NCBI GenBank assembly: GCA_965199495.1
Contig: CBDASK010000003.1
Span: forward strand, 1,600,001 to 1,664,000
Direction of reading: 5' to 3'
From: Abditibacterium sp.
GTDB lineage: Bacteria > Armatimonadota > Abditibacteriia > Abditibacteriales > Abditibacteriaceae
DNA length: 64,000 nucleotides
In this document: positions 439 through 64,000 of the stretch, one piece after another
Numbering within the stretch: the stretch's first letter is position 1
Layout: each line of letters starts with the position of its first letter
Position numbers and translations under genes: made by a program
The notes under the pieces: generated by a model
What the model saw: the letters and a program-made list of their open reading frames with translations, nothing else
Database searches by the model: none
What the model was told of the DNA's origin: nothing

Positions 439-1305
439 CTATTTCAAATTGCCGATCATTCGTTTGTGCGTGACGCTGCCCAGATCGGTGGCCGTGGCTC
501 CGACTTGCGGCAACTTATCGAGAAACGCGAAATTTTCCATCGCGTCGCCGCTTTGATATTTATCGGCCAATTGTTCCAAGGTTTCGTCGGTCACGCCCGC
601 ATAAGAAACGTGCTTGACGTAACTACCGACCGCGTCGCGATATTGCGAATAGAGCGTGAGCGTGGAATCGTCGCGATTGTAGAGCGCCGTCGCATAGCCA
701 CTGCACATCGTGGGCGGAAACGTGTTGAGTTTCTGGTCGAAATTCCAGTTGAGCCGAATTGTCCGAGCTTTAGCATCGTCTTTTAACACCCGCGACAACA
801 AAGCGAGCGGTTGCGCCGATTCGGCCTTAATCTGCACCGCATCACCTCTGTGGATGACCAGAGGAGAAATCGTTACGGGCACGGTCACCGCATTCGGCGC
901 ATCGCCCATCGGTTCGCCCAATTCGGCCAAATCGGCGGCGGCGTCCGCGACGCGTTTGGTGCGCGTGCAAAGGTTGGTTTGCAATTGGTCGTCGCCCTTA
1001 TTTTTAAAAGCGTAGACGAGATAATCGCGGTCGCGGTCGAACACGATGCCGCACGCGGCGCTTTCGCTGTTAGACACAACAGCAGCCACGTCGCCTTGGA
1101 CGCCCTTCCACTTTTTGGAAACGGCGAACTGAAACGTGTTGGTGCCCTTACTTTTCTCGACCGAAGTCACTTTACCCACGAAAACCGCCGCCGATTGTTC
1201 GAGCGCGATTTTAGGAGCAGGCGGCGGCGCGCAACTGCACGCCTGAGCGATGGACGGGGCCGCGCACAAAGCGCCCGCGAGAACGAGTTTGAAAATGTTG
1301 TTCAT
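439..1305 (-). CDS. Secreted TIMP/NTR-like domain protein
   Basis: Signal peptide ending AQA, then CSC, AVFVGKV, V.KKWKG, SAACG, YLVYA and LCTRT, matching the bacterial TIMP-like pattern. Confidence 0.7.
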   Translation of the reverse strand: MNNIFKLVLAGALCAAPSIAQACSCAPPPAPKIALEQSAAVFVGKVTSVEKSKGTNTFQFAVSKKWKGVQGDVAAVVSNSESAACGIVFDRDRDYLVYAFKNKGDDQLQTNLCTRTKRVADAAADLAELGEPMGDAPNAVTVPVTISPLVIHRGDAVQIKAESAQPLALLSRVLKDDAKARTIRLNWNFDQKLNTFPPTMCSGYATALYNRDDSTLTLYSQYRDAVGSYVKHVSYAGVTDETLEQLADKYQSGDAMENFAFLDKLPQVGATATDLGSVTHKRMIGNLK

Positions 1306-1349
1306 GGAATTTCTGCGATTAAAGACTGCGTTATGGCGCGCGATGTTCC

Positions 1350-1385
1350 AAAAAAGCCCGCGAATTGGATTCGCGGGCTTTTGTT
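1350..1385 (-). terminator. Intrinsic terminator downstream of the DUF3072 gene
   Basis: Stem AAAAGCCCGCGAAT/ATTCGCGGGCTTTT followed by a T-run on the minus strand. Confidence 0.7.
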
Positions 1386-1404
1386 GTGGGTTCGCAGCGA
1401 CAAT

Positions 1405-1650
1405 TTACTTGCCGCGCCCGGTTTTCTCCTGCAATTCGTCAATGCGCTTGGAAGCGTCGGCTTTGTTGAGCGTGTCGTCGAACGGCTCGTTCGCTTGATC
1501 GGACAGCGTCTTCAAATACGATTTCTGCGCGCCGGTCATCGGCTCTTCGCCAGTCGCCCAGGTGTCGGGGTCTTTCACCGCGTTCGAGTTCTCGCCGGTG
1601 TTGATTTCGTCATGCGTTTTGGGGGTCGAATCTTGATTTTGTGTGGCCAT
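1405..1650 (-). CDS. DUF3072-family small protein
   Basis: KDPDTWATGEEPMTGAQKSYLKTL...KADASKRIDELQ signature. ATG at 1650 chosen as the start. Confidence 0.8.
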   Translation of the reverse strand: MATQNQDSTPKTHDEINTGENSNAVKDPDTWATGEEPMTGAQKSYLKTLSDQANEPFDDTLNKADASKRIDELQEKTGRGK

Positions 1651-1754: not shown

Positions 1755-3095
1755 ATGCGCGCAATTTTGGCTTTGACAGCAGTCGTAACTTTGGGGCTGA
1801 GCGTTTCGCCGACGCAGGCCCAGATCAAAATCGTCGGACAGAACTCGAACCTTTCGACGCCGAGCGTTGTTTTGCCCGCGATTCCCTCGCGCGGCACGAC
1901 GCCGACGGTTGGCGTGCCAAGAGTTGCGAGTCCGAAAGTGATTAATTCCGGCGTCAACGACGGCGTGACCGTGATGGGTGCGCCCATACCGAAAGTTTCG
2001 GCGTCGCGCGCCAAATACGAACCGGCGGGCGACAAGGTTTATCACGGCGCGTCCCTCCCCGACGCATGGAGCGAGAACGGTTTGCGGCGCCAAATCGCCG
2101 ATTATAACGAGGCGGCGGGCAAGAAAATTTCAGTCGTGACGTGGTTTGCCTCGGCCTACGAAAAGGGCCGCATGACGAGTTGGAGCCAATCTTATGCGCC
2201 CAACATGGCGCGCGTGCAGCGTTTGGGCGCGGTTTCGCTCATCAAGTTTTCTACCCAAGATTACGCGTGGGATCAAACCCACAAAATGGCCGACTTAAAG
2301 TCCATCGCGCGCGGCACATGGGACGATTATTTTAAGCAAGCGGCGCTGGCCGTAAAGCAGTTTGGTGGGCCGGTTTTCATTTCGATTGACCACGAAATGA
2401 ACGGCAACTGGTATCCCTACTCGCAAGCCTATCCCGGCGCGGACACGACGGCGGCGGATTACGTGGCGGCTTGGCGGCGCATTGTCACGATTTTCAACCA
2501 AAACGGCGCCAACAACGTCGCGTGGGTCTGGTCGCCCAATGTGCCCGATGTCGGCGGCGTCGGCTATGAAGCGTATTATCCCGGCGACAGTTATGTGGAT
2601 TGGGTCGGCGTTTCGCTGTATTCGGGCAACGACCCGACGGCGATGGACGATATTTACCAAAAATATGCGGCGAAGAAACCGTTTTTCATTACCGAATGGG
2701 CGACGGCGCCCGAAAAGAATCGCTATAACTCGCAGTTTCCCGGCGAGGTCGCGTGGGTCAAAGAGTTTTTCGATTCGCTCAACGAGCGTTATCCGCGCGT
2801 CAAAGCGATTTCGTGGTTCAACTGGAATCAGGGCGATGGCGACTATCGTTTGCAGCGCGTGCCCGAACAGGCCAAAGCCTACGCGGGCGACGTGGCTGCA
2901 CCGCGCTATCTGGCCAGCGCCGGAGATTTGGTCGCCGATAACACGCAACCCGCATTGCCGCGTTTGGACGTGCCGGGCCGCGAAGTTGTCTTAAAAGACG
3001 CCCCCAAAGTCGTTGATCCGAAGCCGCAAGCCGCGCCGCTTCAGCGCACGTTATTAGATCGCGTTCGCATTCAAACGGTGCCCACGCAACGGTAA
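1755..3095 (+). CDS. Secreted glycoside hydrolase family 26 (beta-mannanase-like)
   Basis: Signal peptide; motifs HEMNGNWYP, WVWSPN, YYPGDSYVDWVGVS and KPFFITEW. Confidence 0.85.
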   Translation: MRAILALTAVVTLGLSVSPTQAQIKIVGQNSNLSTPSVVLPAIPSRGTTPTVGVPRVASPKVINSGVNDGVTVMGAPIPKVSASRAKYEPAGDKVYHGASLPDAWSENGLRRQIADYNEAAGKKISVVTWFASAYEKGRMTSWSQSYAPNMARVQRLGAVSLIKFSTQDYAWDQTHKMADLKSIARGTWDDYFKQAALAVKQFGGPVFISIDHEMNGNWYPYSQAYPGADTTAADYVAAWRRIVTIFNQNGANNVAWVWSPNVPDVGGVGYEAYYPGDSYVDWVGVSLYSGNDPTAMDDIYQKYAAKKPFFITEWATAPEKNRYNSQFPGEVAWVKEFFDSLNERYPRVKAISWFNWNQGDGDYRLQRVPEQAKAYAGDVAAPRYLASAGDLVADNTQPALPRLDVPGREVVLKDAPKVVDPKPQAAPLQRTLLDRVRIQTVPTQR

Positions 3096-3331: not shown

Positions 3332-6061
3332 TCAACTTAGTGTCTTAGTCATGTCGCGCAACGTTTCGACTAACTTGCTGGGCACAATCGGTTTGGTCAA
3401 ATGATTCTGAAAGCCCGCTTCCAATGCGCGCGCGCGGTCTTCGTTGCGGGCGTAGGCCGTAAGAGCCACGGCGGGCGTGTGACCGCCACATTCGGTGGAA
3501 AGCGCGCGCACGCTTTCGATGAGCGAATAGCCGTCGGAACCTGGCATGCCGATGTCCGACAGCAAAATGTCGGGGCGAAACTGTTCCAGAATTTCCAGCG
3601 CTTGCTCGGCGTTGCCAGCGATTTCGATTTGCGCGCCGTAACGCGTCAAAACCAACTGTAACATCTCGCGCGCGTCGGCTTCGTCGTCCACGATCAAAAT
3701 TTTGACGCCCCGCAAACTTTGCTGCGCGTCGGGCGCCGCTTCGCCATCCGCACTTGCGCCCAATTCATCCGTGCTGTGGGCGCCCAAAACCGGCGCGATT
3801 GGCAAATGAACGCGAAAGGTGCTGCCCTGCCCCAGACCCGGAGAATCCACGCTGACGCTCCCGCCGTGTTGCTCGACCAAATGGCGCACGATGGAAAGGC
3901 CCAAACCCAAACCGCCCGTCGCGCGCGTAGACGAGGCGTCAGCCTGACGGAAGCGCTCGAAGACGTGCGGCAGAAATTCGGGCGCGATGCCCGCGCCCGA
4001 ATCGGTGATTTCCAAAGCGTATCCCGAATCTTCGCGCGCGAGTTTTACCTTGACTTGACCGCCGCGCGGCGTGAACTTAACGGCATTGGCAATCAGATTC
4101 CACGCGACCTGCTGCAAGCGGTCGGCGTCGCCGACGCTACCCGCGCCGCGCGCGGGCAGGTCGGCCAGCAGAGCCACGCCCTTGACGCGCGCCGTCGGCT
4201 CGACGGTTTCGATGGCCGCGCGCACCACCTCGCTCAGATCAATTGAAATCAGTTCGAGTTTCAATTTGCCCGAAATAATGCGCGAAACATCCAATAAATC
4301 GTTGACGATTTGCGCCTGGGCGCGCGTGTTGCGCTCGATGACATCGTAGGCTTGCTTGCGAAAATCGGCGTCGGGATCATCGGTTTTGAGCAGTTCCAGC
4401 CAACCCAAAATTGGCGTCAGTGGCGTGCGCAGTTCGTGCGAAACGACGGCCAAAAATTCGTCTTTGAGGCGATTGGCGTTTTCGGCTTCTAAGCGCGCTT
4501 TCTCTTCGTTTTGCAACGCCTCCGCGCGATGCGCATCGGCGATTTTGGCATCGTCAATGTCGGTGCAGGTGCCAAACCATTGGACGATTTGACCGCGCTT
4601 GTCGCGCAGTGCCAGCGCGCGCGCCAGAAACCAGTGATATTCGCCGTCGCTGCGCCGCAAGCGATATTCGATTTCGTAGGGAGCGCCGCTATCAATCGAA
4701 TACTGCCAACGTATGCGCGCGCGGTCAACGTCGTCGGGATGCAACGGCATCGCCCAACCGCTACCGAAACTCTGCGCGGGCGAAAGCCCGGTGAACTGAT
4801 ACCAACGCTGGTTAAAATAGACGTGCGCGCCGCTCGCGTTGGTCATCCACACCATTTGTGGCATCTGTTCAGTGACCAAACGATATCGCTCTTCGAGCGC
4901 CGCCAGTGCCGCTTTCTCGCGTTGCGCAGCCTCGAACAAACGCGCATTTTCCAGCGAAAGCGCGGCCTGTCCGGCCAAGCCCTGAATCAAATGTTCGGCG
5001 TTTTTGCCGAAATTATTGGCTTTGGGATGCGCCAAAAACAGCGCGCCCAGCCACAAGCCCGAACGCGCTACAATCGGCGCCGCTAAATACGAAGCCACGG
5101 CGCCGCCCGCGCCAAACGGCGTGCGCAGTTTGGGCGCCCGATCCGTGTCGCGAATCTCGATGCCCTCGAAACGCGCGTCAGTTTGCAAATCGTCGGCTTG
5201 AATTGTTTCGGCACTTTCAACCGAAATCGCGTTGGAGCGCAACGCGTCGCCAAACGCGATGGGTTCTGGGCCAAACATCGCGCGCGGGTCGAGCGGCGAC
5301 AGCGCGTATTCGGGATTGGCCACATCTGGCCCGCACGAATAGGGCGGCGCCACGCTTTCCTGGGGCGACGGCAAAAACGCGCCGATGGTGGCGCCCGTCA
5401 GGTCAACCGCCGCTTGCGTAATCGCTTCGACCAATTTGCCCGCATCTAATTCGCCCGCTACAATGCGCCCGATTCGGTATAAAGTCGCGGTAATTTCGGT
5501 CTCTTCGCGCAACCGAATTTCGGTGAGTTTGCGGAGGCTGATGTCTTCGTGCGTAACAACCACGCGCGTTGGCTCCTTTGTTTCGGGTGCGGGCACGCTA
5601 TTCCAAAACCGCGTGGCGCGCAGGGCATACCAACGCTGCTGGTTGGGCGCATGACACGGATATTCCAGATAAAATTCGTCGCGTTGCCCGCCCAAGACTT
5701 CGCCCAGCCCCTGTAAAACCAAGGGCGCCTCTTCGGCGTTGGCGCCGGTCGCGCGCGCGCAAACCGCCAGATAATTGGCGCCCAAACCGTAGGATTCGCC
5801 GCTAAAATCATTGGATTGGGCGTAGCGGCGCCACGCCGCGTTGATCGAAATAATGGTGCCACCTTCGTCCAAAATCGCCAGATGCGCGGGCAGCGAATCT
5901 ATCGTCGCCTGCAAAACCGGCGACGCGACATCCGAAGCGATGCCATCGCGAACGACAGTTGCATCGGAATTCCCAACACTCAAATCTGGTTGGGACGAAA
6001 CGGAATTATCGCAAGATTGCTCGGAACAGCAAACCGGATTCGGCAAAACAAGAAACGACAT
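3332..6061 (-). CDS. Hybrid sensor histidine kinase (PAS-GAF-PAS-HisKA-HATPase-REC)
   Basis: H-box SHELRTPL, N-box NLIANAVKF, G-boxes DSGAGI and GLGLGL, C-terminal receiver (ILIVDDE...LLSDIGMP...KP). Confidence 0.92.
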   Translation of the reverse strand: MSFLVLPNPVCCSEQSCDNSVSSQPDLSVGNSDATVVRDGIASDVASPVLQATIDSLPAHLAILDEGGTIISINAAWRRYAQSNDFSGESYGLGANYLAVCARATGANAEEAPLVLQGLGEVLGGQRDEFYLEYPCHAPNQQRWYALRATRFWNSVPAPETKEPTRVVVTHEDISLRKLTEIRLREETEITATLYRIGRIVAGELDAGKLVEAITQAAVDLTGATIGAFLPSPQESVAPPYSCGPDVANPEYALSPLDPRAMFGPEPIAFGDALRSNAISVESAETIQADDLQTDARFEGIEIRDTDRAPKLRTPFGAGGAVASYLAAPIVARSGLWLGALFLAHPKANNFGKNAEHLIQGLAGQAALSLENARLFEAAQREKAALAALEERYRLVTEQMPQMVWMTNASGAHVYFNQRWYQFTGLSPAQSFGSGWAMPLHPDDVDRARIRWQYSIDSGAPYEIEYRLRRSDGEYHWFLARALALRDKRGQIVQWFGTCTDIDDAKIADAHRAEALQNEEKARLEAENANRLKDEFLAVVSHELRTPLTPILGWLELLKTDDPDADFRKQAYDVIERNTRAQAQIVNDLLDVSRIISGKLKLELISIDLSEVVRAAIETVEPTARVKGVALLADLPARGAGSVGDADRLQQVAWNLIANAVKFTPRGGQVKVKLAREDSGYALEITDSGAGIAPEFLPHVFERFRQADASSTRATGGLGLGLSIVRHLVEQHGGSVSVDSPGLGQGSTFRVHLPIAPVLGAHSTDELGASADGEAAPDAQQSLRGVKILIVDDEADAREMLQLVLTRYGAQIEIAGNAEQALEILEQFRPDILLSDIGMPGSDGYSLIESVRALSTECGGHTPAVALTAYARNEDRARALEAGFQNHLTKPIVPSKLVETLRDMTKTLS

Positions 6062-7220: not shown

Positions 7221-7248
7221 ATCAAGGCGACGTGGCTGCTGACGCGCG

Positions 7249-8166: not shown

Positions 8167-8742
8167 CTATTTGCCGCGATGAATGGCGCTCCACTTGACT
8201 AATTCGGCGCTCATCTTTTCCAGCGATTGCGCCAACTTTTCGTCTTTGAGTTGGCCGTTTTCGTCGAAGGCGCCATACGATTTGGCAATCGAAAGTTGCG
8301 AGGGAATCGCCCACAGGTGCAGTTGGCGCGCGATGCCGCGCAAATGCGAGAGCGCCTGAATCGCGCCGATTTGACCAGCAGCCACGCCGAGCAGGGCGAC
8401 GACTTTGCCCTCGAAATCGGCAATCGAAGCCAAATCCAACGCGTTTTTTAAAGCGCCCGAATACGAACCGTGATATTCGGGCGTCGCCCACAACAAGCCG
8501 TCGGCGCCGCGAATGGCGGTTAATAGTTTTTCGGCGTCGGGCCATTCGTTGGGATTCCAATCGCTCGACGCGAACGGCAATTGGAGTTCGCGCAAATCGA
8601 GCAGTATCGTCTCACCGCCCGCGCGCTCTGCGGAATCCAGCGCCAATTGCAACGCGCGACGCGTGGTCGAATCGGCACTCAGGCTGCCGCAAATGCCGAC
8701 GATGACGGGCGAATCGGCGGATTGAGATTGAGGAATTTCCAT
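8167..8742 (-). CDS. NADPH-dependent FMN reductase
   Basis: GICGSLS and ADGLLWATPEYHGSYSGALKNALD. Confidence 0.9.
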   Translation of the reverse strand: MEIPQSQSADSPVIVGICGSLSADSTTRRALQLALDSAERAGGETILLDLRELQLPFASSDWNPNEWPDAEKLLTAIRGADGLLWATPEYHGSYSGALKNALDLASIADFEGKVVALLGVAAGQIGAIQALSHLRGIARQLHLWAIPSQLSIAKSYGAFDENGQLKDEKLAQSLEKMSAELVKWSAIHRGK

Positions 8743-8981: not shown

Positions 8982-10532
8982 ATGAATCAACCTCAAGCCC
9001 TTTACCGCAGTTTCGGATTGTTACTGGCTCTCCTGCTTTTTCTGGTCGGGCTTTCGCTTTATAACTTCCGTCTGCTCGGCCAAGCCAGCGCCTATAGCAC
9101 GCGCTCCTATCAAACGCTGCTCGAAAGCGAGGGGCTGATGCAATCGCTACTCAACATGGAAACCGGCGTGCGCGGCTATCTGCTGACTGGCGACGAGCAA
9201 TTTTTGGATCCCTACAACAGTGGGCGCGCCAATTATCAGGTGCATCTGGCGAACGTCAACGAGTTGATGAAAAGCTCGCCCGAACAGATCGTGCGCTTGC
9301 AAGAGTTGGATCGGTTGCAGCATAAATGGCTCGACACCATGATTGCGCCCGCCATCGAGCAACGGCGCGACGCGGCGACGATGCAGGAGGGTTTGGCGGC
9401 GGCTTCGACGCAGGCCATCGAACGCAAAGCCGCGATGGACGATATGCGCAACACCATCGTGCGCATCGAAGATCAGGAAAAAACATTATTGCAAGCGCGC
9501 GGCGAACAACTGGCGCAACGGCGCAGTGGCTTCATCTGGATTTTGTGGGGCGGCGGTTTGTTCTCGATTGTGATTACCGCCGCGCTCGCGGCTTTCGCGG
9601 CGCGCGCCGCCGGACAAATCGCATTGGCGCAGGCCCGCTTGGAAACCAGCAACCGCGAACTGCTTGCCTCGAAAACGCAGGTCGAAGCCGAAAACGCGCA
9701 ACGCCGCGCCGCCGAGGCAAAACTGCGCGAGGCCGTGCAGGATTTGCAACGATCTAACGCCGAATTGGAGCAGTTCGCCTACGTCGCCTCGCACGATTTG
9801 CAGGAGCCACTGCGCGCCGTGGCTGGCTGCGTACAGGTCTTGCAAAAACGCTACGGCGGCAAACTCGATGCGCGCGCCGACCAGTTCATCGAACACGCCG
9901 TGAGCGGCGCGCAACGGATGCAAAACCTCATCAACGATTTGCTGGCCTACTCGCGCGTCGGCACCCACGGCAAACCGTTCGAGGACGTTGCGCTCGATAA
10001 AATCGCCGACTACGCGCTGCAAAACCTGAGCGAACGCATCAAAGAAACCGGCGTCATCGTCACGCGCGACGCCTTGCCGCAGGTTTGGGGCGACGGCGGC
10101 CAACTCGAACTGGTGTTGCAGAATTTGGTTTCTAACGCGCTCAAATTTCGCGGCGAAACCGAGCCGCAGGTTCACATCGGTTACCAACTGCGCCGCGCGT
10201 TGCGCCCGGTTGGCAATGACGGCGCAACGGCTTTGAGCGACGAAGCCCAACATGTGATTTCGGTGCGCGATAACGGATTGGGCATCGAACCGCAATATTT
10301 TCAGCGTATTTTCGTGATGTTCCAGCGTCTGCATACGCGCACCGAATTTCCCGGAACGGGCATCGGTCTGGCGATTTGCAAAAAAATCGTCGAGCGTCAC
10401 GGCGGTTCGATTGGCGTCGAAAGCGTGCCGGGCGAAGGCGCGACATTCTGGTTTTCGCTTCCGGTTCACGCTGAGAATAGAAGCGAAAATGGAATAGAAT
10501 CGCCCGCGCCTGTGGCAACCGGCGCGAATTGA
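8982..10532 (+). CDS. CHASE3-domain sensor histidine kinase
   Basis: TM helix, CHASE3 motif [21 protein letters not shown], second [16 protein letters not shown], HATPase boxes. The ORF extension upstream of 8982 is repeat sequence. Confidence 0.9.
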
Positions 10533-36936: not shown

Positions 36937-37269
36937 ATGGAAATGCTTTTAACCATTGAACAGGCGGCTTTGCGGTTACAACTACACCGCGACACGGTGA
37001 GAAAACAACTCAAGCGCGGCGAGTTGCGTGGCGTGAAGCGCGGGCGAGTTTGGCGCGTGCCAGAAAGCGCGCTTGGAGAAGCGGCGCCAACGCCAGCCAC
37101 GCCGCCCGTCCCGACGACGCCAGAAGCGAGGGTGGGACAACTGGACGACTTTTTAAAAAGCGTCGAAGTGCTGACGCAACGCATGGAAGCAGCGGGCTTT
37201 AAAGGGGTAAATGGAGCGGAATTAGTGCGCGAAGGACGAGAGGAAAGGGAGCGTCAAATTGGCGAGTAA
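36937..37269 (+). CDS. Excisionase-type HTH (HTH_17) protein, probable antitoxin
   Basis: LLTIEQAALRLQLHRDTVRKQLKRGELRGVKRGRVWRVP and an antitoxin-like tail ELVREGREER. Overlaps the PIN gene. Confidence 0.75.
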   Translation: MEMLLTIEQAALRLQLHRDTVRKQLKRGELRGVKRGRVWRVPESALGEAAPTPATPPVPTTPEARVGQLDDFLKSVEVLTQRMEAAGFKGVNGAELVREGREERERQIGE

Positions 37270-44903: not shown

Positions 44904-44930
44904 TTTTCTCGATTCAAACTTTAAAATCCC

Positions 44931-53362: not shown

Positions 53363-55699
53363 ATCGCAACCACAGATTTACTTTCGGGCCTCAACGAGCC
53401 GCAGCAACAAGCCGTCACCCACGAATCCGGGCCACTGCTGATTTTTGCCGGAGCCGGTTCGGGCAAAACGCGCACTCTGACGCATCGCATCGCCTATCTC
53501 ATCGGGCATCACGGCGTTTCGCCGCAACATATTTTGGCGGTGACTTTCACCAACAAAGCCGCCAAAGAGATGCGCGAACGTTTGGAAGTTTTGATCGGCC
53601 CCGTCGCCAAACGAATGTGGCTGGGCACTTTCCACGCGCTGTGCGCGCGCATGTTGCGCGTTCACGGCGAGCGCATCGGCATCAACCCGCGTTTCGCGAT
53701 TTTCGATACCGACGACAGCACGCGTTTAATCAAAGAGATTTTGAAAGATCTGAATCTCGACACCCAGCGTTTTCCGCCCGCGCGCGTTTTGGGCAAAATT
53801 AGCGACGCCAAAAACGCGCTCAAGACGCCCGAAACTGTCGCCGCCGAAGCGGTTCACTCGCACCAAAAGGTTTACGCGCAGCTTTACTCGCATTATCAAG
53901 CCCGCCTGCGCGAGATTTCGGCGCTCGACTTCGACGATTTATTGTCCGAATCGGTGCGTCTGCTTCAGCAAAGCTCGGAATCGCTGGAACATTGGAGCCA
54001 GCGTTTTCGCCACGTTTTGATTGACGAATTTCAAGATGTCAACGAAGCCCAATTTCAGTGGGCGCGTTTGTTGGCGAGTAAACATAATAATATCTGCGTT
54101 GTGGGTGACGATGATCAAAGCATTTACGCGTGGCGCGGCGCGAATGTGCAGATTATTCTCGATTTCGAGAAGCGTTATCCCGATGCCAAAGTGATTCGGT
54201 TGGAGCAAAATTATCGTTCGACGCAGAACATTTTGGACGCGGCTTATGGCGTGATTTCGCATAATTTGGGGCGCGCCGATAAGAAACTTTGGAGCGACCA
54301 GAAGGGCGGTGAAGAGATCGCTTTGCACGGTTCGTATAACGCGGTCGAAGAGGCGAGTTGGGTTGTGCGCCAAATCGAGATTTTGATGCGCGAAGAGCGC
54401 ATTTCGTTCGGCGATTGCGCGATTTTGTGTCGCGTCAACGCGCAGTCGCGGCCCTTCGAGGAAGCGTTTATGCGCTCGCGGATGCCGCTCAAATTGGTCG
54501 GCACGCAGCGATTTTACGAGCGCCGCGAGATTCGCGACGTGATGGCGTATCTCAAATTTCTCTACAATCCCGACGACGGCGTTTCGGCGGCGCGGCTCAT
54601 CAACACGCCGCCGCGCGGCATCGGCGCGGTGACGATTAGCAAATTGCAGGAAATGGCGCGCGCGCGCGAAATTTCGCTGGGCGCGATTTTGTTGGACAAA
54701 GACGCGACCAAAGAATTGACGCCCGCCATCGCGCGCAAAATTACGCCGCTTCGCAACACGCTGGTGCAGATTTTCAATGACGCCAACAAAGCGCAGACTT
54801 TGGCCGATTTGGTCGAGCGCGTTTTGGAGCGCACCGAGTTCATCGAATATCTCGATAATTCCAACGAAAAAGATAACGTGGATCGCGTCGCCAACGTCGA
54901 AGAGTTCGTGCGCGCCGCCGAATCGTTCGATTTAAGATTGGCCGAGGAATTGGACGAAGCGGGCGAAACCGTCGAAGAGTGGGACGAGAAAGACCCGCTG
55001 CGATTGGGCCAATTTCTGAGTGAAACCGCGTTGCAGGGCGGAACCGACAAAGACGCGCAAACCGACGACGCCGTGACGTTTATGACGCTGCACGCCGCCA
55101 AAGGTCTGGAGTTCCCGATTGTGTTTTTGGTCGGCTTAGAGCAGGGCTTGTTGCCGCACGCACGCGCGGTTTTTAGCGACAGCGCGACCGAAGAAGAACT
55201 CGAAGAAGAGCGGCGTTTGATGTATGTCGGATTGACGCGCGCGCGCAAACGCGCGATTTTGACCTTCGCGGCGCAACGCACCATGCACGGGCGCACGGAA
55301 TCCACGATGCCCTCGCAATTCATCGAAGAAATCCCCGCGCATTTGCTGCGCCGTAGCGGCATGGCTGGTGGCGGCTCGCCGATAGTTCAGAATCGTCGCA
55401 CCAGTTGGGGCCGCGATGATTTCAAAAGTTTGCCGCGCCCATCGGAGCCGGTTTCGCCGATTCCCCCGGCGCCAGCAGCCACGTCGGCGGCAACCAAAAG
55501 TTCCAAGCGCAGTTTCGACAAACCGGCGACCTTTAAAGTCGGCGACAAACTGCGGCACAAATCGTATGGCGAAGGTTTAGTCGTCGCGGCGAGCGCGGGC
55601 GGCGGCGTGGGAGAATGGGTCGAAGTCGCGTTTTTGACGGGCGACGCGGGCAAGAAAAAGTTGATCGTGGCGTATGCGAATTTGGAAAAAGTGAGTTGA
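53363..55699 (+). CDS. pcrA: ATP-dependent DNA helicase PcrA/UvrD; start apparently at non-canonical ATC 53363
   Basis: In frame upstream of the ORF-track start: LLSGLNEPQQQAV...AGAGSGKT. Downstream: TFTNKAA, DEFQD, VGDDDQSIY, LEQNYRS, TLHAAKGLEF and EEERRLMYVGLTRA. Confidence 0.93.
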   Translation: MATTDLLSGLNEPQQQAVTHESGPLLIFAGAGSGKTRTLTHRIAYLIGHHGVSPQHILAVTFTNKAAKEMRERLEVLIGPVAKRMWLGTFHALCARMLRVHGERIGINPRFAIFDTDDSTRLIKEILKDLNLDTQRFPPARVLGKISDAKNALKTPETVAAEAVHSHQKVYAQLYSHYQARLREISALDFDDLLSESVRLLQQSSESLEHWSQRFRHVLIDEFQDVNEAQFQWARLLASKHNNICVVGDDDQSIYAWRGANVQIILDFEKRYPDAKVIRLEQNYRSTQNILDAAYGVISHNLGRADKKLWSDQKGGEEIALHGSYNAVEEASWVVRQIEILMREERISFGDCAILCRVNAQSRPFEEAFMRSRMPLKLVGTQRFYERREIRDVMAYLKFLYNPDDGVSAARLINTPPRGIGAVTISKLQEMARAREISLGAILLDKDATKELTPAIARKITPLRNTLVQIFNDANKAQTLADLVERVLERTEFIEYLDNSNEKDNVDRVANVEEFVRAAESFDLRLAEELDEAGETVEEWDEKDPLRLGQFLSETALQGGTDKDAQTDDAVTFMTLHAAKGLEFPIVFLVGLEQGLLPHARAVFSDSATEEELEEERRLMYVGLTRARKRAILTFAAQRTMHGRTESTMPSQFIEEIPAHLLRRSGMAGGGSPIVQNRRTSWGRDDFKSLPRPSEPVSPIPPAPAATSAATKSSKRSFDKPATFKVGDKLRHKSYGEGLVVAASAGGGVGEWVEVAFLTGDAGKKKLIVAYANLEKVS

Positions 55700-57090: not shown

Positions 57091-59142
57091 TTACTTACCC
57101 TTGTCAATGATTTCGCCTTTTTGTTTTTCAACGGTTGCGAGGCATTGATCTAAGACGTTGAGCAGGTGCGCGATATTGAAGGGTTTAGCCAAATAATCGT
57201 TGGCGCCAGCAGCCAACAAACGTTCGACCTGACCGGGCGTGGCATCGGCGCTGATCATGATCACCGGCACGTTTTTCAAGTTTTCGTCCGCGCGCAGGCG
57301 CCGCAAAACTTCGTCGCCGTTGATGTCGGGCAAATGCAAATCGAGCAAAACCACATCGGGCCGTTGCTGCCGCGCCATCTCGATACCGACTTCGCCCTGA
57401 AACGCAGTCAGCAAACGCACTTCGGGACGATAGGCCAGAATCCCTTCCATCAATTGAACGTTGGGCAAATTGTCCTCGATATAAAGCACGCTCCAACGCG
57501 TAGCCACTGGCGACCTGTCGCCGGTGGCTGCTCCTGCTTGGGCGACATTGAGTTGAGACAATGGCAATTCGGCGAGGGGCAATTCGATCCAAAACGTGCT
57601 GCCCTGCTCGTCCGAACGAAAATCCAACTGTCCGTTCATTGTCTGCGCCAGGCGATGAGAGAGCGCCAGCCCAATGCCGGTGCCTTCGATGCTGCTCGAC
57701 TCGGCGCCCAACCGGTCGAATGCCACCCACAAACGCTCGCGGTTTTCGGGCGCGATGCCCTTTCCGGTGTCGGTCACGCACAGGCGCACCAGTTCCGCAT
57801 GGTCTTGATCCGGCTGTTTCCTCGTTTCGAGCGAGAGCGTCACCGTTCCGTTTTTGCGATTGTATTTAATGGCGTTGGAAAGCAAATTCAACACGATTTG
57901 TTTCACACGGCGGCGGTCGCCCAGCACGGCGAGCGGCGAATCGAAAACGTCGCTTTGGCGCAAACTGATGCCAAATCCTGCGGCCATCGGGCGCACCAAA
58001 TCGAGCGCTTCGTGCGCGACTTCGGCGACGCGAATCGGCTCGACGGACAGAGCCACGGCGCCGGTTTCGATGCGAGAAATATCTAAAACCTCGTTGATCA
58101 GTTCCAGCAGATGACGCCCGGCCTTGAGAATATGCTCGGTACTTTCGCGACTGCCGGGCGATTGTTCTTCGAGTTCCAACAGTTGACCAAACCCCAGAAT
58201 CGCGTTGAGCGGCGTGCGCAGTTCGTGGCTGACGCGGCCCAAAAAGTCCGATTTGGCGCGGTTGGCGGCTTCGGCCTCTTCGCGCGCGCGCGTCAGGGCA
58301 GTCTCGATTTCTTTGCGCGCGGTGATGTCGCGTTGCAGCGAAACCCAGTGCGTATACCAACCGCGCTCGTCAGCGACCGGCACAATCGAAAGCTCGACCC
58401 AGAACGGCACGCCCGCCTTGGTATAATTGAGCATCTCGACCACAATCGGCTTCCAACGCTTAAGCGCCCGGCGAATTTGCTCGCGCGCCGCCGGGTCGGT
58501 GCCTTCGCCCTGCATCATGCGCGGCGTTTGGCCCATCACCTCTTCGAGCGTGTAACCGCTCATCTTGCAATAGGCCTCGTTGGCGTAGAGAATGCGCGGC
58601 CCCGGCAAATCAATCGGCTCGGCTTCGGTAATCAAAATCGCATCGTTGGCATTGACGGCGACCGATTCGAGCAAACGCAATCGCTCGTTCTGCTGGCGAC
58701 GCACGTCAATATTTTGCACCTGAACCAGCAGATAATCGGGCGCGCCGTCCGCGCCGCGCACCAGCGAAACCATGAATTGCGCCCAGAATTTCGCTCCATC
58801 GCACCGCACAAATTCGCGTTCAATGGAAAGCGACTTCTCTTCGCCCTTCAACAAACGTTGGGCGTTTTCAATCGAAATATCGACCTCTTCGGGCGGCAAT
58901 AAATCGCGGTAATTATACTCGGCCAATCGCTCGACTTCTATGCCGCTCATTTCGGCGAATTTGCGATTGATGCGCAAAAATCCTCCGTCCAGACCGACCA
59001 TCGCCTCGCCCAACGACGACTGCTCAAACGCGCCCTCCAAGCGTTCAACCGCCAAACGGCGCACGGCCTCATCGCGCGTCTCATCCATAAAATCATCCTT
59101 CATATAAACAACTGCCAAGCAACATAATGGCCTACTTGACAC
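57091..59142 (-). CDS. PAS-PAS hybrid histidine kinase with C-terminal REC; start uncertain
   Basis: SHELRTPLN, NLLSNAIKYN, DTGKGI, GTGIGL, VLYIEDN and LLDLHLP. Confidence 0.92.
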   Translation of the reverse strand: MSSRPLCCLAVVYMKDDFMDETRDEAVRRLAVERLEGAFEQSSLGEAMVGLDGGFLRINRKFAEMSGIEVERLAEYNYRDLLPPEEVDISIENAQRLLKGEEKSLSIEREFVRCDGAKFWAQFMVSLVRGADGAPDYLLVQVQNIDVRRQQNERLRLLESVAVNANDAILITEAEPIDLPGPRILYANEAYCKMSGYTLEEVMGQTPRMMQGEGTDPAAREQIRRALKRWKPIVVEMLNYTKAGVPFWVELSIVPVADERGWYTHWVSLQRDITARKEIETALTRAREEAEAANRAKSDFLGRVSHELRTPLNAILGFGQLLELEEQSPGSRESTEHILKAGRHLLELINEVLDISRIETGAVALSVEPIRVAEVAHEALDLVRPMAAGFGISLRQSDVFDSPLAVLGDRRRVKQIVLNLLSNAIKYNRKNGTVTLSLETRKQPDQDHAELVRLCVTDTGKGIAPENRERLWVAFDRLGAESSSIEGTGIGLALSHRLAQTMNGQLDFRSDEQGSTFWIELPLAELPLSQLNVAQAGAATGDRSPVATRWSVLYIEDNLPNVQLMEGILAYRPEVRLLTAFQGEVGIEMARQQRPDVVLLDLHLPDINGDEVLRRLRADENLKNVPVIMISADATPGQVERLLAAGANDYLAKPFNIAHLLNVLDQCLATVEKQKGEIIDKGK

Positions 59143-59716: not shown

Positions 59717-60394
59717 ATGTCTTCCCTTATCGAAATTGCCGGTCTGACCAAAAATTATCAAGTCGAAAAACGCGTCGTTCACGCCTTGCAGGGCGTTGAT
59801 TTAATTGTCCCATCGGGCCAATTTTTGGCAATTGTCGGACGCAGTGGTTGCGGAAAATCCACCTTATTGAACTTGTTGGGCGGTCTCGATACGCCCAGCG
59901 CAGGTCAACTTCAAGTCGGCGGCGCCGACGTGGCTGCTTTGGACGAACGCGGTTTGACCAATTATCGGCGCGATACCGTCGGCATCGTTTTCCAGTTTTT
60001 CAATTTGATGCCGCTCCTAACGGCGACCGAAAACGCGGCGTTGCCCGCGCTGTTGGCGGGCAAACCAAAAAAGCCGACCTTTGAGCGCGCGCGGATATTG
60101 CTGGAAAAAGTCGGGTTGGGCCACCGCTTAGACCAAGGCGCGAGTTTATTATCGGGTGGCGAAATGCAACGCGTGGCGGTGGCGCGCGCGCTGATTAACG
60201 ATCCGCTACTAATTTTGGCCGACGAGCCGACGGGCAATTTGGATTCGCAATCATCGCAAGCGGTATTGGGCGCTTTGCGCGAACTGACGCGCGACGAAGG
60301 CAAAACCGTGGTGATGGTGACGCACTCGCGCGAGGCCGCCGCCATCGCCGATGTCACGCGCGAAATGCGCGACGGCGTATTCGTCGAAGGTTAG
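59717..60394 (+). CDS. ABC transporter ATP-binding protein (LolD/MacB-like)
   Basis: GRSGCGKST, LSGGEMQRVAVARAL, ADEPTGNLD and MVTH. Confidence 0.92.
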   Translation: MSSLIEIAGLTKNYQVEKRVVHALQGVDLIVPSGQFLAIVGRSGCGKSTLLNLLGGLDTPSAGQLQVGGADVAALDERGLTNYRRDTVGIVFQFFNLMPLLTATENAALPALLAGKPKKPTFERARILLEKVGLGHRLDQGASLLSGGEMQRVAVARALINDPLLILADEPTGNLDSQSSQAVLGALRELTRDEGKTVVMVTHSREAAAIADVTREMRDGVFVEG

Positions 60395-60409: not shown

Positions 60410-61948
60410 TCAGTTCATTTCCACATCATCTACGACCATCGAATAAATCGTGTCGGGCGCGGCCTCAATTGTGATTTTCTTGTTCGTAATATCAACTGAT
60501 GAAGTCGCAAAACGTTGGCTGCCGTCGGTATGCGTTTGCGTCAATTGCGCGCTATTTCTCACAGTTTTCAAGTTCGATAAATCGTAAATGATGGGCTGCG
60601 CGTTGCCATAATTAATCGTGATAAACGTCAGTTGTCTCTTTTTGGCATCGTAAGCAACAATGGAATTGTTGTCATCGCTACCGATGATTTTCAGGCCGGG
60701 GCGCAGAAAGCGGGTGAACTGGGCGAACGCGTAAAATTTGGTATAAACCCATTTCGGCTGACCCGATTCGGGATCGGCGGCAGTTTTCCCTTCTTGCCCG
60801 TTGACCAAACCCCACGCGCTCGCCGGTTCGAGGGCTTGCCAGTAAATCCACGCTGTCGGACGAATGAAGTTGATGTCTTCCATAATTGTCTGCCCCAGTT
60901 TCATGCCGCCGCCTTCATTGTCGCCGAACTCGTCGGCCCACAAACGCGTTTGGCCAACGCTATCGCGCAAACGCTGGCGCGCGGCGTTGTCGCGCATCGG
61001 TTCGAGGCCCGAATACGAATGAACGTTGACTTTATCAATTAATGTAACGGCTTTAACGCTTTTGCCCGCGAATTGAACATCGCGGTTTTTGAAAAATTCG
61101 TGGGTTTCGCGCGCTTGCACCACATTATTTTCGTCGCTGGCGCTAATTCCGACTTTTTGCAAACCGTCATTGTCCAGTTCTTCGCGCAAATATGCCAAAA
61201 TATCGGCCTGATCTTCGCGCGAGATATTGGCGCCTTCCTGATTTTTCGGATAATTCCACCAACCGGCGCTCGGCTCGTTGAAAGGCTCGATTGTATCCAC
61301 TTTCACGCCCCAGTTTTTCTGGGCGTGACTCACGACGCTCGCCAAATAATGCGCGAAATCGCGTTTGTTCCAATTTTGCAAGCGCCCGCCCGCCGACGAT
61401 TTCGAGTCCATCATCCACCACATCGGCGCGTTGGAAAAGAACTCGACTTTGTCGGCCCCGCGCGCAATCGCGGCTTGCATCATCGAACGTTGTGCGGCAT
61501 CGCGCGACCACTCCCAACTCGGCGACGCAGGATTTTTATCGGCCCAGTTGATCCAGTACCCGTCAATATCGCGCGCCCACGACAAAATATCGGGCTTGCA
61601 CTCGACGGCGTTTTCAAATTGGTCGTCGCGCCCCCGCCCGCCGCCGCCGACGTTATAACGCAAGATATTGAAATTCAAACCCGGCAATTTCTGGTCGAGA
61701 AACGATATGGTTTTGTCGGTGTAAAACAGATCGGCGTAAAGATTCGCGTAATTTTTGCCACCAACCATATTGGGCCACCACGCGAACGAACAGCCCCAAC
61801 CTTCCCACGTCCCGCGATTCTCGTCGGGATTGATTTTCAGCGTATAACCGGTCGGATTTTTTGGGTTCACGGGCGCGGGCGCGTCCTGAGCGCCACTTAC
61901 GATTGAAGTCGCCGCCAGAGCAGCCACGGCGAGGAGCAGTTTGAACAT
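60410..61948 (-). CDS. Secreted GH30 glycoside hydrolase (endo-beta-1,6-galactanase-like)
   Basis: Signal peptide; WEGWGCS, RYNVGG, FSNAPMWWM, EPFNEP and NVHSY. Confidence 0.82.
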   Translation of the reverse strand: MFKLLLAVAALAATSIVSGAQDAPAPVNPKNPTGYTLKINPDENRGTWEGWGCSFAWWPNMVGGKNYANLYADLFYTDKTISFLDQKLPGLNFNILRYNVGGGGRGRDDQFENAVECKPDILSWARDIDGYWINWADKNPASPSWEWSRDAAQRSMMQAAIARGADKVEFFSNAPMWWMMDSKSSAGGRLQNWNKRDFAHYLASVVSHAQKNWGVKVDTIEPFNEPSAGWWNYPKNQEGANISREDQADILAYLREELDNDGLQKVGISASDENNVVQARETHEFFKNRDVQFAGKSVKAVTLIDKVNVHSYSGLEPMRDNAARQRLRDSVGQTRLWADEFGDNEGGGMKLGQTIMEDINFIRPTAWIYWQALEPASAWGLVNGQEGKTAADPESGQPKWVYTKFYAFAQFTRFLRPGLKIIGSDDNNSIVAYDAKKRQLTFITINYGNAQPIIYDLSNLKTVRNSAQLTQTHTDGSQRFATSSVDITNKKITIEAAPDTIYSMVVDDVEMN

Positions 61949-61994
61949 GGGAACAGATTGACATTCCCATACATCGGATGTCGCGCTCGACAGA

Positions 61995-62119
61995 CTTTAA
62001 CCACAAAAACCCAAAAACCTCAAAAGGACACAAAAAGAACGAATCACCCGCTAAAAGTTACGCAAGTTAATTCGTTCTTTTTGTGTCCTTTTGAGGTTTT
62101 TGGGTTTTTGTGGTTAAAG
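61995..62119. repeat. Palindromic REP-like element, family D
   Basis: CTTTAACCACAAAAACCCAAAAACCTCAAAAGGACACAAAAAGAACGAAT inverted arms. Confidence 0.88.
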
Positions 62120-62151
62120 CGAATTTACACGATTTTGGATTCGGACAATTT

Positions 62152-64000
62152 TCATTTGCCCAACGGCAAATCTACGCGCGCGCTAAAAGCCAGTTCGGCG
62201 TCTTTGCGCTCCATCATGGTTTGGCACAATGTCTGTATGCTCGGCGCGACTTTTCGCGTAAACGTTTGGCCATTGACGGTGAAATTCACCGGTTTGCTGA
62301 AATCAATCAGGCGGCTGTCGAGCAGAACGCTGGCATTTTTTACGTTCGGCGTGGCTGTGACTGTCACTGCGTTATTTTCGCAGGTCGCGTCAATGCGTTT
62401 TTCTTTGGCGGGCGTGTCAGCGTGCAGCCAGTAAAAATCGTGAATGACGCCGTCGGTTTGCAGCCAGTTCAGCGTGCGCGGAACCGGGTTGCGCACTTCG
62501 GGATACATCGGCACGATCATATCGCGGTCGGGCAGATTGCCGTGTTCAAATCCCATTTTCACGCTCACAGTCACCGGATAAATATCGGTGCGGTCGCCGC
62601 GCAACGCGACGATTTCGTCGGCGAATTTTTGGTTGCGCGATAATCGGTCGTAGGCCAAATCTTTCTCGCCGACCCACGCCGTAAAAGGCGTATTCCGTAG
62701 CGTCACGGGTGTGCTTTCGCCGTCGGTCACTGCGCCCGCCGAAGCGTGAATCGCCGCGAAATGATCGGGCATTTTCGGGCCAATCGCATAGGCGCCGTAG
62801 CCGCCGTGCGAGTAACCCATGATGAAAACTTTGTCGCTGTCCACATCGTTCAAGACGACCTGCTGCTCGATCAAATTGGCGATGAGCGGATAAACGTAAT
62901 CGTCATAAAATCCGTTCCAGGTGTCGTTGGGCGCGCGCAACGCCAGATATTTGTAGCCGCCCAATTCGGGATGATCGAAATAATGCTGCGCCATTTCGTG
63001 CCACTGCTGGTCGTTGACTTCTTTGGCGGTGCCGCCGCCGCCGTGCATCGCGATGAAAAGCGGCCAACCGTTTTTCGGGCGCGTGCCGACGGTTTTGATG
63101 ATATATGGACTGAGATACTCGCCTGATGTCACCTGATTTTTGGCAAAATCGGCTTGCAAACTCGCGCTTTGCGTGGTTTTGAAAGCGCTCCAAACCGCCG
63201 CGCGCACGGCGGGTTCATTGGTCTTCAAAGCCTTGTCAAGGGCGCCGGGAAACTTGAAATTGGCGCGCTCGGTTTCGGTCGCGTTGAAGTAGTCGGACGC
63301 CGCTTTGTTGATTTGCGCCGCGAGTTTGGCGGGCAATTGTTTGGTGATGGGCGGCGTAACATAGCGCGGCAAAGTGAATTGCATATCGCGCGTGGCTGCT
63401 GGCGCGACGGGAGCAGCCACGGCGGGCGCGTTCTCGTCTGTGGGCGGCTTGAGTTGCAGTACGACCAACTGCTCCGTCTGGTCTTGCGGCGCGAAAGTGC
63501 TGTTCATCGTTTGGCCGCCGTAATCCACCGTCATGGCATACGTCGCGGCGCGCGGCACATTGAAGGTGAGAAAATTATTGGTGTCGCCGCTTTCGTCAAT
63601 CGTGGTGCCCTCGAAAATTTGCGTCGCGTCGGCGTTGTTGGTCAGCTTGATTTTGGCGGCCACGCGTTTTTTGTCGGGGCCAACCAAACCGATTTGCAAA
63701 CGCGTCAAAGCAGGTTGCGGTTTGGCGTCTTTGGCGTAGCGCGTCGTCACGTTTTGGGCGCTGACCCAATCGAGTTTGTCGTCCCACACAAGCGGGAAAT
63801 GGGTGCCGGTGCGCTTCCAACTCGTCGCGTAAATCGCGTGCAAACCGTCGTCTTTGGCGGCGGCGGCATCGCCCTCGAACCAGCCGTGATCGTAGCCTTT
63901 GTCGTCGGGTTCGGCGGCGCCGATGTAATGCCAATCGCCCTTGTCCCAAACCTCGACCCATGTATGATTGCCGCGCTCGTTGCTCCACATCGGCGTGCCA
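62152..64000 (-). CDS. Transglutaminase-like domain fused to a C-terminal alpha/beta hydrolase; 5' end lies outside the window
   Basis: GNHTWVEVWD.GDWH; later AMHGGG and MGYSHGGYG (GxSxG). Confidence 0.75.
   Translation of the reverse strand, partial: GTPMWSNERGNHTWVEVWDKGDWHYIGAAEPDDKGYDHGWFEGDAAAAKDDGLHAIYATSWKRTGTHFPLVWDDKLDWVSAQNVTTRYAKDAKPQPALTRLQIGLVGPDKKRVAAKIKLTNNADATQIFEGTTIDESGDTNNFLTFNVPRAATYAMTVDYGGQTMNSTFAPQDQTEQLVVLQLKPPTDENAPAVAAPVAPAATRDMQFTLPRYVTPPITKQLPAKLAAQINKAASDYFNATETERANFKFPGALDKALKTNEPAVRAAVWSAFKTTQSASLQADFAKNQVTSGEYLSPYIIKTVGTRPKNGWPLFIAMHGGGGTAKEVNDQQWHEMAQHYFDHPELGGYKYLALRAPNDTWNGFYDDYVYPLIANLIEQQVVLNDVDSDKVFIMGYSHGGYGAYAIGPKMPDHFAAIHASAGAVTDGESTPVTLRNTPFTAWVGEKDLAYDRLSRNQKFADEIVALRGDRTDIYPVTVSVKMGFEHGNLPDRDMIVPMYPEVRNPVPRTLNWLQTDGVIHDFYWLHADTPAKEKRIDATCENNAVTVTATPNVKNASVLLDSRLIDFSKPVNFTVNGQTFTRKVAPSIQTLCQTMMERKDAELAFSARVDLPLGK

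Follow-up and report, generated by a model that had tools for sequence, protein, structure and literature searches.

A polar, strand-tiled DNA word in a clade of Abditibacteriaceae resembles an uptake sequence by genomic criteria

Why does a short, non-palindromic word recur in both orientations throughout a bacterial chromosome? The question arises from a 64-kb stretch of an Abditibacterium sp. genome (contig CBDASK010000003.1, positions 1,600,001 to 1,664,000), the whole of which we call the window. Its host belongs to the Abditibacteriaceae (Armatimonadota); DnaN has its best named homologues, at 69 to 72% identity, among proteins assigned to Abditibacteriaceae, Abditibacteriota, and Armatimonadota. 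The window is part of contig C3 (4.72 Mb), the chromosome of the genome designated G000. An initial annotation had recorded a 9-mer iterated on both strands of the window and had read it as a lineage-specific uptake or chromosome-binding signal. We found that the motif is real, strong, and lineage-specific, and that it is a polar signal dependent on duplex phase, selected or driven, that tiles each strand independently. By genomic criteria it resembles an uptake sequence, and we give roughly even odds (about 50%) to its being a polar self-DNA recognition signal, i.e., a DNA uptake sequence of the same kind as the uptake signal sequences (USS) of Pasteurellaceae. To our knowledge, only two families, both proteobacterial, have established sequence-specific uptake tags, with highly iterated palindrome 1 (HIP1) as a debated third case.

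RESULTS

The word is far more frequent than codon usage predicts

Genes of G000 were predicted with our own dicodon-trained caller (3882 genes, 83% coding). The 9-mer occurs on C3 in 863 plus-strand and 917 minus-strand copies, spread evenly across 200-kb bins. These copies are real, but the 9-mer is only part of the unit: substitution counts define a 10- to 12-bp motif, CG[ACG]CGTGGCT, followed by G (75%), C (56%), and T (49%). The CGTGGCT core is strict, with positions near invariant within the 12-mer context, and the edges are graded. GTGGCT is also the top over-represented hexamer of G000 (6390 versus 3073 expected, maximal-order Markov model). The 10-bp core is present on C3 in 2799 copies (1392 plus and 1407 minus), a density of about 590 per Mb, or about one per 3.1 to 3.4 kb on each strand.

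Could the excess be an artifact of codons, peptides, or composition? Most coding copies do fall in two reading frames, but all six frames exceed both of our codon-aware nulls (8 replicates each), which were synonymous-codon shuffles and codons sampled on the previous codon, the latter trained on the motif-bearing genome itself. Under these nulls, set beforehand as the test on which the proposed enrichment should stand or fall, the called genes contain 1613 copies of the 9-mer versus 82 and 257, 2558 copies of the 10-bp core versus 103 and 293 (9- to 25-fold), and 1196 copies of the 12-mer versus 19 and 73. Outside genes, the 10-bp core is found 228 times versus about 6 expected. Given also that the word is absent from ten congeners, that its spacing tracks the DNA strand regardless of gene orientation, and that peptide-matched controls lack its helical phase (0.002; all below), we regard the probability of an artifact as negligible.

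Sites in G000 lie within genes in 92% of cases, in synonymous or conservative spelling and with neither a GTAG nor a hairpin. The word leaves an imprint on the proteome, where VAA, AVA, and AAT rank with the most over-represented tripeptides. Residues encoded by the motif match those of motif-free orthologues at 362 of 648 positions (246 genes); because 431 matches are expected, the motif has altered proteins. Inverted or close pairs within 45 bp number 74, most of them in genes; about 20 are intergenic, many just past stop codons. A non-palindromic word, strongly over-represented, equal in both orientations, and with a reading-frame preference and a tripeptide imprint shows two hallmarks of uptake sequences. 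We conclude that the motif arose in genes and spacers through point mutation and is held under selection or drive.

The word is confined to one clade and maintained there

Among the 13 genomes of the genus, the core is found in 2801 copies in G000, 2548 in G011, and 912 in G004, versus 41 to 105 in each of the other ten, in the range of reversed control words (61 to 148). In 48 genomes sampled from other genera, no enrichment was detected (12-mer, ≤45 copies). G000, G004, and G011 form one clade with 100/100 support in a single-gene ComEC tree of all 13 genomes, which bears out the proposed lineage specificity. This word in this lineage was not found described in the literature searched, which left out most subscription papers.

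The consensus of G011 (300 kb read) is identical to that of G000. G004 (400 kb read) carries a longer dialect, approximately TAGGACGTGGCTGGTGTC, sharing CGTGGCTG with the G000/G011 word; dialects that track phylogeny are another hallmark of uptake sequences. The conservation in relatives that the initial annotation had proposed to examine is evident: in 151 kb aligned between G000 and G011 (85.5% identity), 65 of 87 sites are kept, 63 of them identical, versus 180 of 518 identical peptide-like control words. In 243 kb aligned with G004 (79.9% identity), only 23 of 165 sites are kept. Sites are therefore maintained yet replaceable, and it is their density and spacing that matter, not their position. 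No other dispersed words were found in 120- to 140-kb samples of motif-free congeners G002, G006, G007, G009, G010, and G012, and viral contigs gave 25 single matches of the G004 word without enrichment.

Of the 203 sites examined in G004, 62 form 31 inverted doublets, 27 of them outside long open reading frames (ORFs), that begin GTAG-GAC...GTC and occur in all gene geometries. This form, together with the presence of an unrelated REP-like family in G000, would be accounted for if the word derived from, or were read by the transposase of, a family of repetitive extragenic palindromes (REP), the transposase being a strand-specific HUH nuclease. We consider this highly improbable, given the coding, hairpin-free G000 sites described above, the 114 of 141 G004 solo sites that lie in ORFs, and the point changes by which sites differ among genomes. 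It is simpler to suppose that repeats captured a word that was already useful. The G000 family, which we take to be REP-like, comprises 226 matches of GTCTCTACG, most of which form inverted doublets with a separation of about 87 bp (e.g., C3 83228-83323), none in the window. An abundant word of genome G017 (L295-L300) was considered as a second case and rejected; it proved to be a palindromic hairpin of 24 bp, AGTACGGTCGA-NN-TCGACCGTACT, flanked by A/T-rich DNA, with about 1200 copies (one per kb in the sample), and was found in 1 of 27 family genomes.

Recently acquired DNA lacks the word, as is typical of uptake sequences. The 10-bp core has no copies on C1 (25 kb, approximately 0.3 expected) and 2 on C2 (65 kb, approximately 0.8 expected), which by-eye ORF judgment suggests to be a mobilizable plasmid and a phage, respectively. 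Depleted islands are visible on the chromosome as the 8 of 235 20-kb windows with 3 or fewer copies. Within the chromosome there is no replichore bias: for every origin position tried, 49.3 to 50.7% of copies are "leading", in agreement with the initial contrast to the strand-biased Chi and FtsK orienting polar sequences (KOPS). The replichores themselves are ordinary and visible in the four-fold-site TA skew, which flips sign close to dnaA, near 2.0 Mb, and again near 4.4 Mb. Lagging-strand priming and multi-origin replication were rejected as explanations, since the replichores are ordinary and the word is indifferent to them.

Sites of the same orientation avoid each other

Same-strand pairs of sites closer than 1 kb are strongly depleted on C3 (164 and 192 versus 411 and 419 expected). 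The same-strand ratio is about 0.2 at 100 to 300 bp and reaches 1 at 1.5 to 2 kb, whereas that of convergent and divergent pairs is near 1.0 to 1.1 from 50 bp upward. Of 985 near neighbors, 742 alternate strand; per-strand gaps fit a gamma distribution of shape 2.0. Four control words show no same-strand gap. At 60 to 800 bp, same- and opposite-strand pairs number 104:393 when both sites share a gene, 56:101 when they lie in different genes of the same direction, 23:58 when the genes are opposed, and 36:88 when one site is intergenic, and three control sets trend the opposite way. Because the deficit holds in all gene arrangements, the spacing rule follows the DNA strand and not the transcript. 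Same-strand avoidance is also significant in G004 (P = 0.0005) and G011 (P = 0.002, strand-label permutation).

Solo USS of the Pasteurellaceae type are likewise depleted of same-strand pairs: of 37 pairs at 60 to 300 bp, 8 are same-strand, versus a permutation mean of 17.3 (P = 0.001), with no same-strand gap beyond 300 bp. A Pasteurellaceae genome was sought in the class sample (0 of 151), and this control comprises 55 non-redundant segments (591 kb) from 74 USS-rich loci of 115 metagenome loci (L315-L429). Neither this avoidance among USS nor an orientation-specific spacing rule in general was found described in the literature searched. Karlin et al. in 1996 reportedly noted "even spacing" of USS and may already have treated both orientations separately.

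In a toy simulation whose rules were put in by hand, and which demonstrates consistency rather than proof, two-sided polar saturation over 1.5 kb yields ratios of 0.27, 0.39, 0.55, 0.92, and 1.03, close to the 0.19, 0.33, 0.70, 0.87, and 1.05 observed. When saturation ignores orientation, both curves are emptied, and one-sided runs, which were left untuned, produce a gap that is not deep enough. A one-sided (5′ versus 3′) gap effect in the data is weak and inconsistent. Directional shielding was rejected as well: among 36 comparisons, a few reached P of 0.01 to 0.04 for a stronger 3′ member below 1 kb, but the effect reverses at 1 to 2 kb and vanishes with other scores.

Orientation-specific spacing would be the natural footprint of a polar processing enzyme, and the word might thus be an intracellular polar processing site, functionally replacing Chi. 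A translocating nuclease or recombination loader would stop or start at the first correctly oriented copy, which would require an evenly spaced set on each strand. If the breaks arise at random, through desiccation or radiation, and not from fork collapse, no replichore bias would be expected. Non-polarized Chi candidates have been reported in Vibrio (excerpt of 10.1101/2020.08.13.249359). All 10 motif-free congeners have an AddA-like second UvrD_C match (in two of them as fragments), and 8 of 10 have an AddB-like ORF of approximately 1000 to 1160 amino acids (aa), with a contig-edge fragment in a ninth; neither was found in any of the three motif-bearing genomes. In G012, the two are in tandem, with best matches to AddA and RexB/TIGR03623 below cut-offs. 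The three motif-bearing genomes, which are 95% (G000), 92% (G004), and 87% (G011) complete, yielded only PcrA in a UvrD-family search, and exactly these three of the 13 encode a 1421-aa PD-(D/E)XK and superfamily 1 nuclease-helicase. In the clade that lacks AddAB, end resection is presumably carried out by RecJ/RecQ.

The co-occurrence with AddAB loss has a sample size of one, because it represents one evolutionary event. In G011 the nuclease-helicase gene is disrupted, having lost its N-terminal half and acquired a stop and a frameshift, yet G011 conserves its sites, and none of four other carriers sampled (67 to 120 kb each) has a dispersed non-palindromic word; it was rejected as a reader on both grounds. 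Since the 5′/3′ asymmetry is also weak and the one-sided simulations too shallow, we consider a Chi replacement rather unlikely. Additional FtsK/TraB or HerA translocases were rejected as readers too (single FtsK in 5 of 5 genomes, DUF87 in 0 of 5). The nuclease-helicase (G000:C3:4111365-4115630, L075) has its best PDB matches in DNA2 and Upf1 and is DNA2/Upf1-like; it was gained in the clade lacking AddAB and is patchy across the phylum (14 of 201 genomes).

The per-strand spacing, the two-sided range of 1 to 2 kb, and the absent replichore bias would also be explained by a methylation or nicking mark for mismatch-repair strand discrimination, for which an asymmetric site is needed on each strand, or by a HIP1-like product of methyl-directed repair. 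Both MutS and MutL are encoded, and GC content at four-fold sites drops slightly with distance from a site. Within genes, however, this gradient is 0.003, and four-fold divergence is unchanged with distance, which led us to reject an antimutator gradient. The methyltransferases tested do not track the clade: an MmeI-like methyltransferase is absent from G011 and G004, a type ISP-like methyltransferase matches at only 41% in G004 and at 33% in motif-free G009 (both were rejected as readers), and PF01555 proteins occur in 13 of 13 genus genomes; C5 methyltransferases were sought by pattern only. The MutL motif NQHRAHE is identical in 3 motif-bearing and 8 motif-free genomes, and the idea of a clade-specific loss of MutL endonuclease was rejected. 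We consider a methylation or repair mark very unlikely.

MutL of all 11 genomes (L454-L464 and G000 mutL) carries NQHRAHE at the position where an endonuclease motif would normally start with Asp. A type II restriction-modification pair lies directly behind mutS in G000, and many palindromic hexamers, among them TTCGAA, GCCGGC, CCGCGG, CGATCG, ATCGAT, and GTCGAC, are strongly avoided, pointing to a heavy restriction-modification history.

Sites are locked to a genome-wide helical wave

A+T content centered on the motif oscillates with a period of 11.1 to 11.2 bp, fading by ±150 bp, with amplitudes of 0.054 (5′ side) and 0.037 (3′ side). Both flanking arms are in one phase. The phase is identical for sense, antisense, and intergenic sites and is strongest at third codon positions (0.070), compared with 0.002 for peptide-matched non-motif codons and for random positions and 0.004 to 0.019 for four other words. 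Words mismatched at core positions 7 to 9 show no phase lock, and sites of G011 and non-repeat sites of G004 have the same phase as those of G000. The lock peaks 27 to 38 bp 5′ of the motif, at approximately 80% of the local amplitude (0.065 versus about 0.078), and decays beyond the peak roughly like the wave's own coherence, so that a shorter constraint on the 5′ side may suffice to explain how far it reaches. All frames also show a GC-rich tract at +19 to +26 of the motif. We infer that the word is recognized in duplex, bent DNA. Such a lock is not expected for a site read single-stranded inside a helicase, which further detracts from a Chi replacement.

The 11.2-bp wave is genome-wide and no stronger near sites than far from them. 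Its amplitude at 11.1 to 11.2 bp is 0.023 to 0.050 in the three motif-bearing genomes and 0.008 to 0.020 in five motif-free congeners, with G007 peaking at 10.1 bp (0.024). The AA/TT periodicity of 11.2 bp is a strong genome-wide trait, and most congeners sampled show it less strongly than the motif-bearing clade. A/T waves of the 11-bp type are usually tied to supercoiling (excerpt of PMC4132750).

Could the word be a site of chromosome architecture or topology, positioning a DNA-wrapping or loop-forming protein (a type II topoisomerase, a loader of structural maintenance of chromosomes complexes, or a nucleoid protein) on curved, supercoiled DNA? An early gyrase cleavage consensus would fit the 9-mer. 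Also in favor are the phase lock in both arms, the stronger wave of the motif-bearing genomes, and the periodic arms of gyrase sites (excerpt of PMC6379681). But the gyrase motif is symmetric, degenerate, and indirectly read (same excerpt), while the word is asymmetric and near invariant, and a stable footprint would exclude copies of either orientation, yet opposite copies show no exclusion from 50 bp. In addition, convergent spacers are not preferred (336, 351, and 314 per Mb), and the wave is equally strong far from sites. An architectural role is, in our opinion, unlikely. GyrB of G000 (C3:4092616-4096092) is 1158 aa long with an apparent intein, and a single GyrA/ParC-type gene matched the pattern.

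Sites and genes in the window

All 27 copies of the 9-mer first listed for the window are exact in position and strand, there are no further copies, and the expectation of about one holds (mean of 1.04 and maximum of 4 in 100 dinucleotide shuffles). The peptides VAA, AAT, RGC, SSH, and WQP are likewise as first read, with PWLL in addition at 31620. The copy at 7231 is indeed intergenic, the sole one among the 27. The inverted pair at 63391/63413 exists, but it sits inside an ORF and folds at z = −3.0. Of the 27 copies, 21 have the CG[ACG] prefix, and the window has 13 more 10-bp core sites:

1082..1093, minus: full 12-mer site (DVAA)
2888..2899, plus: full 12-mer site (DVAA)
3464..3473, minus: 10-bp core site, not in the initial annotation
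5093..5102, minus: 10-bp core site
7228..7239, plus: full 12-mer site, intergenic, between convergent genes
8378..8389, minus: full 12-mer site (GVAA)
9815..9824, plus: 10-bp core site
11358..11369, plus: full 12-mer site (AVAA)
14523..14534, plus: full 12-mer site (SSHA, antisense)
15071..15082, minus: full 12-mer site (AVAA)
17516..17524, plus: 9-mer without CG[ACG] prefix (LVAA)
18830..18841, plus: full 12-mer site, retron reverse transcriptase gene (AAT)
20605..20616, plus: full 12-mer site, retron SWIM/BRCT gene (AAT)
21730..21739, minus: 10-bp core site
23436..23445, minus: 10-bp core site
24029..24040, plus: full 12-mer site, retron WGR/HEAT-like gene (AAT)
25517..25525, plus: 9-mer without prefix (AAT)
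28535..28544, minus: 10-bp core site
31620..31628, minus: 9-mer without prefix (PWLL)
33440..33448, plus: 9-mer without prefix (SVAA)
34491..34499, minus: 9-mer without prefix (RVAA)
34682..34691, minus: 10-bp core site
36314..36325, plus: full 12-mer site (DVAA)
37095..37104, minus: 10-bp core site
37411..37420, plus: 10-bp core site
38643..38654, minus: full 12-mer site (RGC)
42334..42345, plus: full 12-mer site (AVAA)
44574..44583, minus: 10-bp core site
47183..47194, minus: full 12-mer site (AAT)
48873..48884, plus: full 12-mer site (WQPR, antisense)
49749..49758, minus: 10-bp core site
51473..51484, plus: full 12-mer site (SSHG, antisense)
52000..52011, minus: full 12-mer site (AAT)
55475..55486, minus: full 12-mer site in pcrA (AAT)
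58051..58060, minus: 10-bp core site
59926..59937, plus: full 12-mer site (DVAA)
61920..61931, minus: full 12-mer site (AVAA)
62347..62356, plus: 10-bp core site
63391..63399, plus: 9-mer without prefix, left arm of inverted pair inside ORF
63413..63424, minus: full 12-mer site (AVAA), right arm of inverted pair

Other genes of the window are as follows:

12578-14059: TadA-like ATPase
44370-48748: MarR-EmrA-EmrB efflux operon
53534-55699: PcrA, the only UvrD-family helicase found in G000

A retron occupies positions 18095-25555 (minus strand) with three adjoining genes, which encode a reverse transcriptase, a SWIM/BRCT protein, and a 1181-aa WGR/HEAT-like protein with an LVIVD repeat; they match PADLOC type XIII models. 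An Rfam search of the window returned 0 matches, retron RNA included. Site positions place the word in all three retron protein genes, as noted initially. Because islands, plasmid, and phage are without the word, long residence of the retron in this lineage is plausible, on the thin evidence of four sites.

DISCUSSION

How might a polar word come to tile each strand separately? If it is an uptake sequence, its reader would bind duplex, gently bent DNA, with a constraint centered approximately 15 to 45 bp 5′ of the core, and would track the DNA without flipping over a range of about 1 to 1.5 kb. For such a reader, a second copy of the same orientation within scanning range would add nothing, and an inverted copy would add fully. 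More tentatively, the reader may be part of the type IV pilus/ComEA/ComEC pathway. The word may have multiplied by molecular drive, in which DNA is taken up with a bias and then recombined by RecA/DprA/ComM.

Competence machinery, a hallmark of taxa with uptake sequences, is encoded, though equally in motif-free genomes. ComEC and ComEA were found in 13 of 13 genus genomes and PilD in 12 of 13, along with a pil locus; ComM is above cut-off in 4 of 5 genomes and RecA present in 5 of 5, with DprA recognized by pattern only. The ComEC metallo-beta-lactamase motif is degenerate in 13 of 13 genus genomes (L022-L034), and the degenerate nuclease motif was rejected as a clade-specific link for being common to all of them. 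Short C-terminal comM fragments, the usual trace of elements integrating into comM, number 3 in G000 (C3:1120703-1255865) and 7 in G012 (C1:57183-292257).

Several observations weigh against an uptake sequence. Pilins, ComEA, and ComEC are also present in motif-free congeners, and no clade-specific pilin was found in the one pil locus compared with 6 other genomes. Competence in this family was not shown in the literature searched. Twenty maintenance and competence genes are not enriched (29 sites in 44.8 kb, the same density as in coding DNA on average), and the 74 inverted pairs are few and mostly in genes. Solo DNA uptake sequences (DUS) of Neisseria polysaccharea (400 kb) have no same-strand gap (15 of 37 same-strand at 60 to 300 bp, P = 0.18; 53 of 108 neighbors alternate), and the USS gap is five times shorter, as estimated from 591 kb of metagenome contigs. 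The motif's phase lock is much stronger than the phase signal of DUS (0.008) or USS (0.014) and, being a lock to a supercoiling-linked wave, suits an intracellular reader. In Haemophilus influenzae, uptake was reported to be independent of USS orientation within a fragment (excerpt of PMC1939737).

Another reading is an undescribed intracellular machine, which would track supercoiled duplex in fixed polarity and would have taken over break processing or chromosome organization upon the loss of AddAB; its sites, strand-tiled and replichore-independent, would be none of Chi, KOPS, or uptake sequence. We regard this as a possibility to be taken seriously, albeit a minority one. If the reader is intracellular, the word is a new kind of polar chromosome signal.

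As an uptake tag, the word would be a case in Armatimonadota that arose recently (3 of 13 congeners) but has diverged into dialects already, and the clade offers a near-paired comparison for finding the reader and for watching such a system arise. The strand-specific gap provides a simple genomic test of reader movement on DNA. Here it separates DUS from USS, and it bears on how the USS receptor, predicted to be ComN/PpdA (excerpt of PMC12616744), locates its site. The same test is directly applicable to uptake-like words of uncultured lineages.

Comparison with known systems

The word does not qualify as a member of Chi, KOPS, HIP1, REP, or the gyrase motif. Like Chi (RecBCD/AddAB), it is asymmetric, apparently read in an orientation-specific way, and enriched in the core genome; unlike Chi, it has no leading-strand polarity, is longer and far more enriched, and occurs in three genomes where RecB/AddA was not found. 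The origin-to-terminus skew of KOPS and of SpoIIIE recognition sequences (SRS) is lacking. HIP1 of cyanobacteria is likewise highly iterated in genes at quasi-regular spacing, with a possible link to transformation and hosts with a strong wave of about 11 bp (excerpt of PMC13756078), but the word is not a palindrome and has no co-distributed methyltransferase among those tested. The sites are not extragenic GTAG hairpins spreading by insertion, as in REP and REP doublets forming hairpins (REPIN), which the G004 doublets fit in part. The Escherichia coli gyrase motif has periodic GC/AT arms of 10.75 to 11.2 bp over >100 bp (excerpt of PMC6379681), similar to those of the word, but is symmetric and degenerate over 130 bp, whereas the word combines an invariant asymmetric core and unequal arms (0.054 5′ versus 0.037 3′) with strand-specific spacing.

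The two established uptake systems are closer. DUS of Neisseriaceae, with eight dialects and the receptor ComP (excerpt of PMC3630211), share a length of 10 to 12 bp, the lack of a palindrome, clade-specific dialects around a common core, an imprint on the proteome, and the absence of replichore bias. They differ in that N. polysaccharea DUS have neither same-strand gap nor phase lock and are largely intergenic inverted pairs (93 plus-minus pairs within 60 bp per 400 kb), in contrast to 92% coding solos for the motif. USS differ from the motif, which is unrelated in sequence and phylum, is GC-rich, and has a putative uptake function; its flanks are a soft lock to an 11.2-bp wave reaching ±150 bp rather than two strong tracts, and its gap is deeper and reaches about 1.5 kb rather than about 0.3 kb. 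USS have phased A/T flanks (excerpt of PMC7811141), and the motif shares with them this helical phasing, an asymmetric core of about 9 to 10 bp with graded edges, a density of about one per 1 to 2 kb in equal orientations, preferred frames with a tripeptide imprint, some inverted pairs at gene ends, and a same-strand gap of the same sign.

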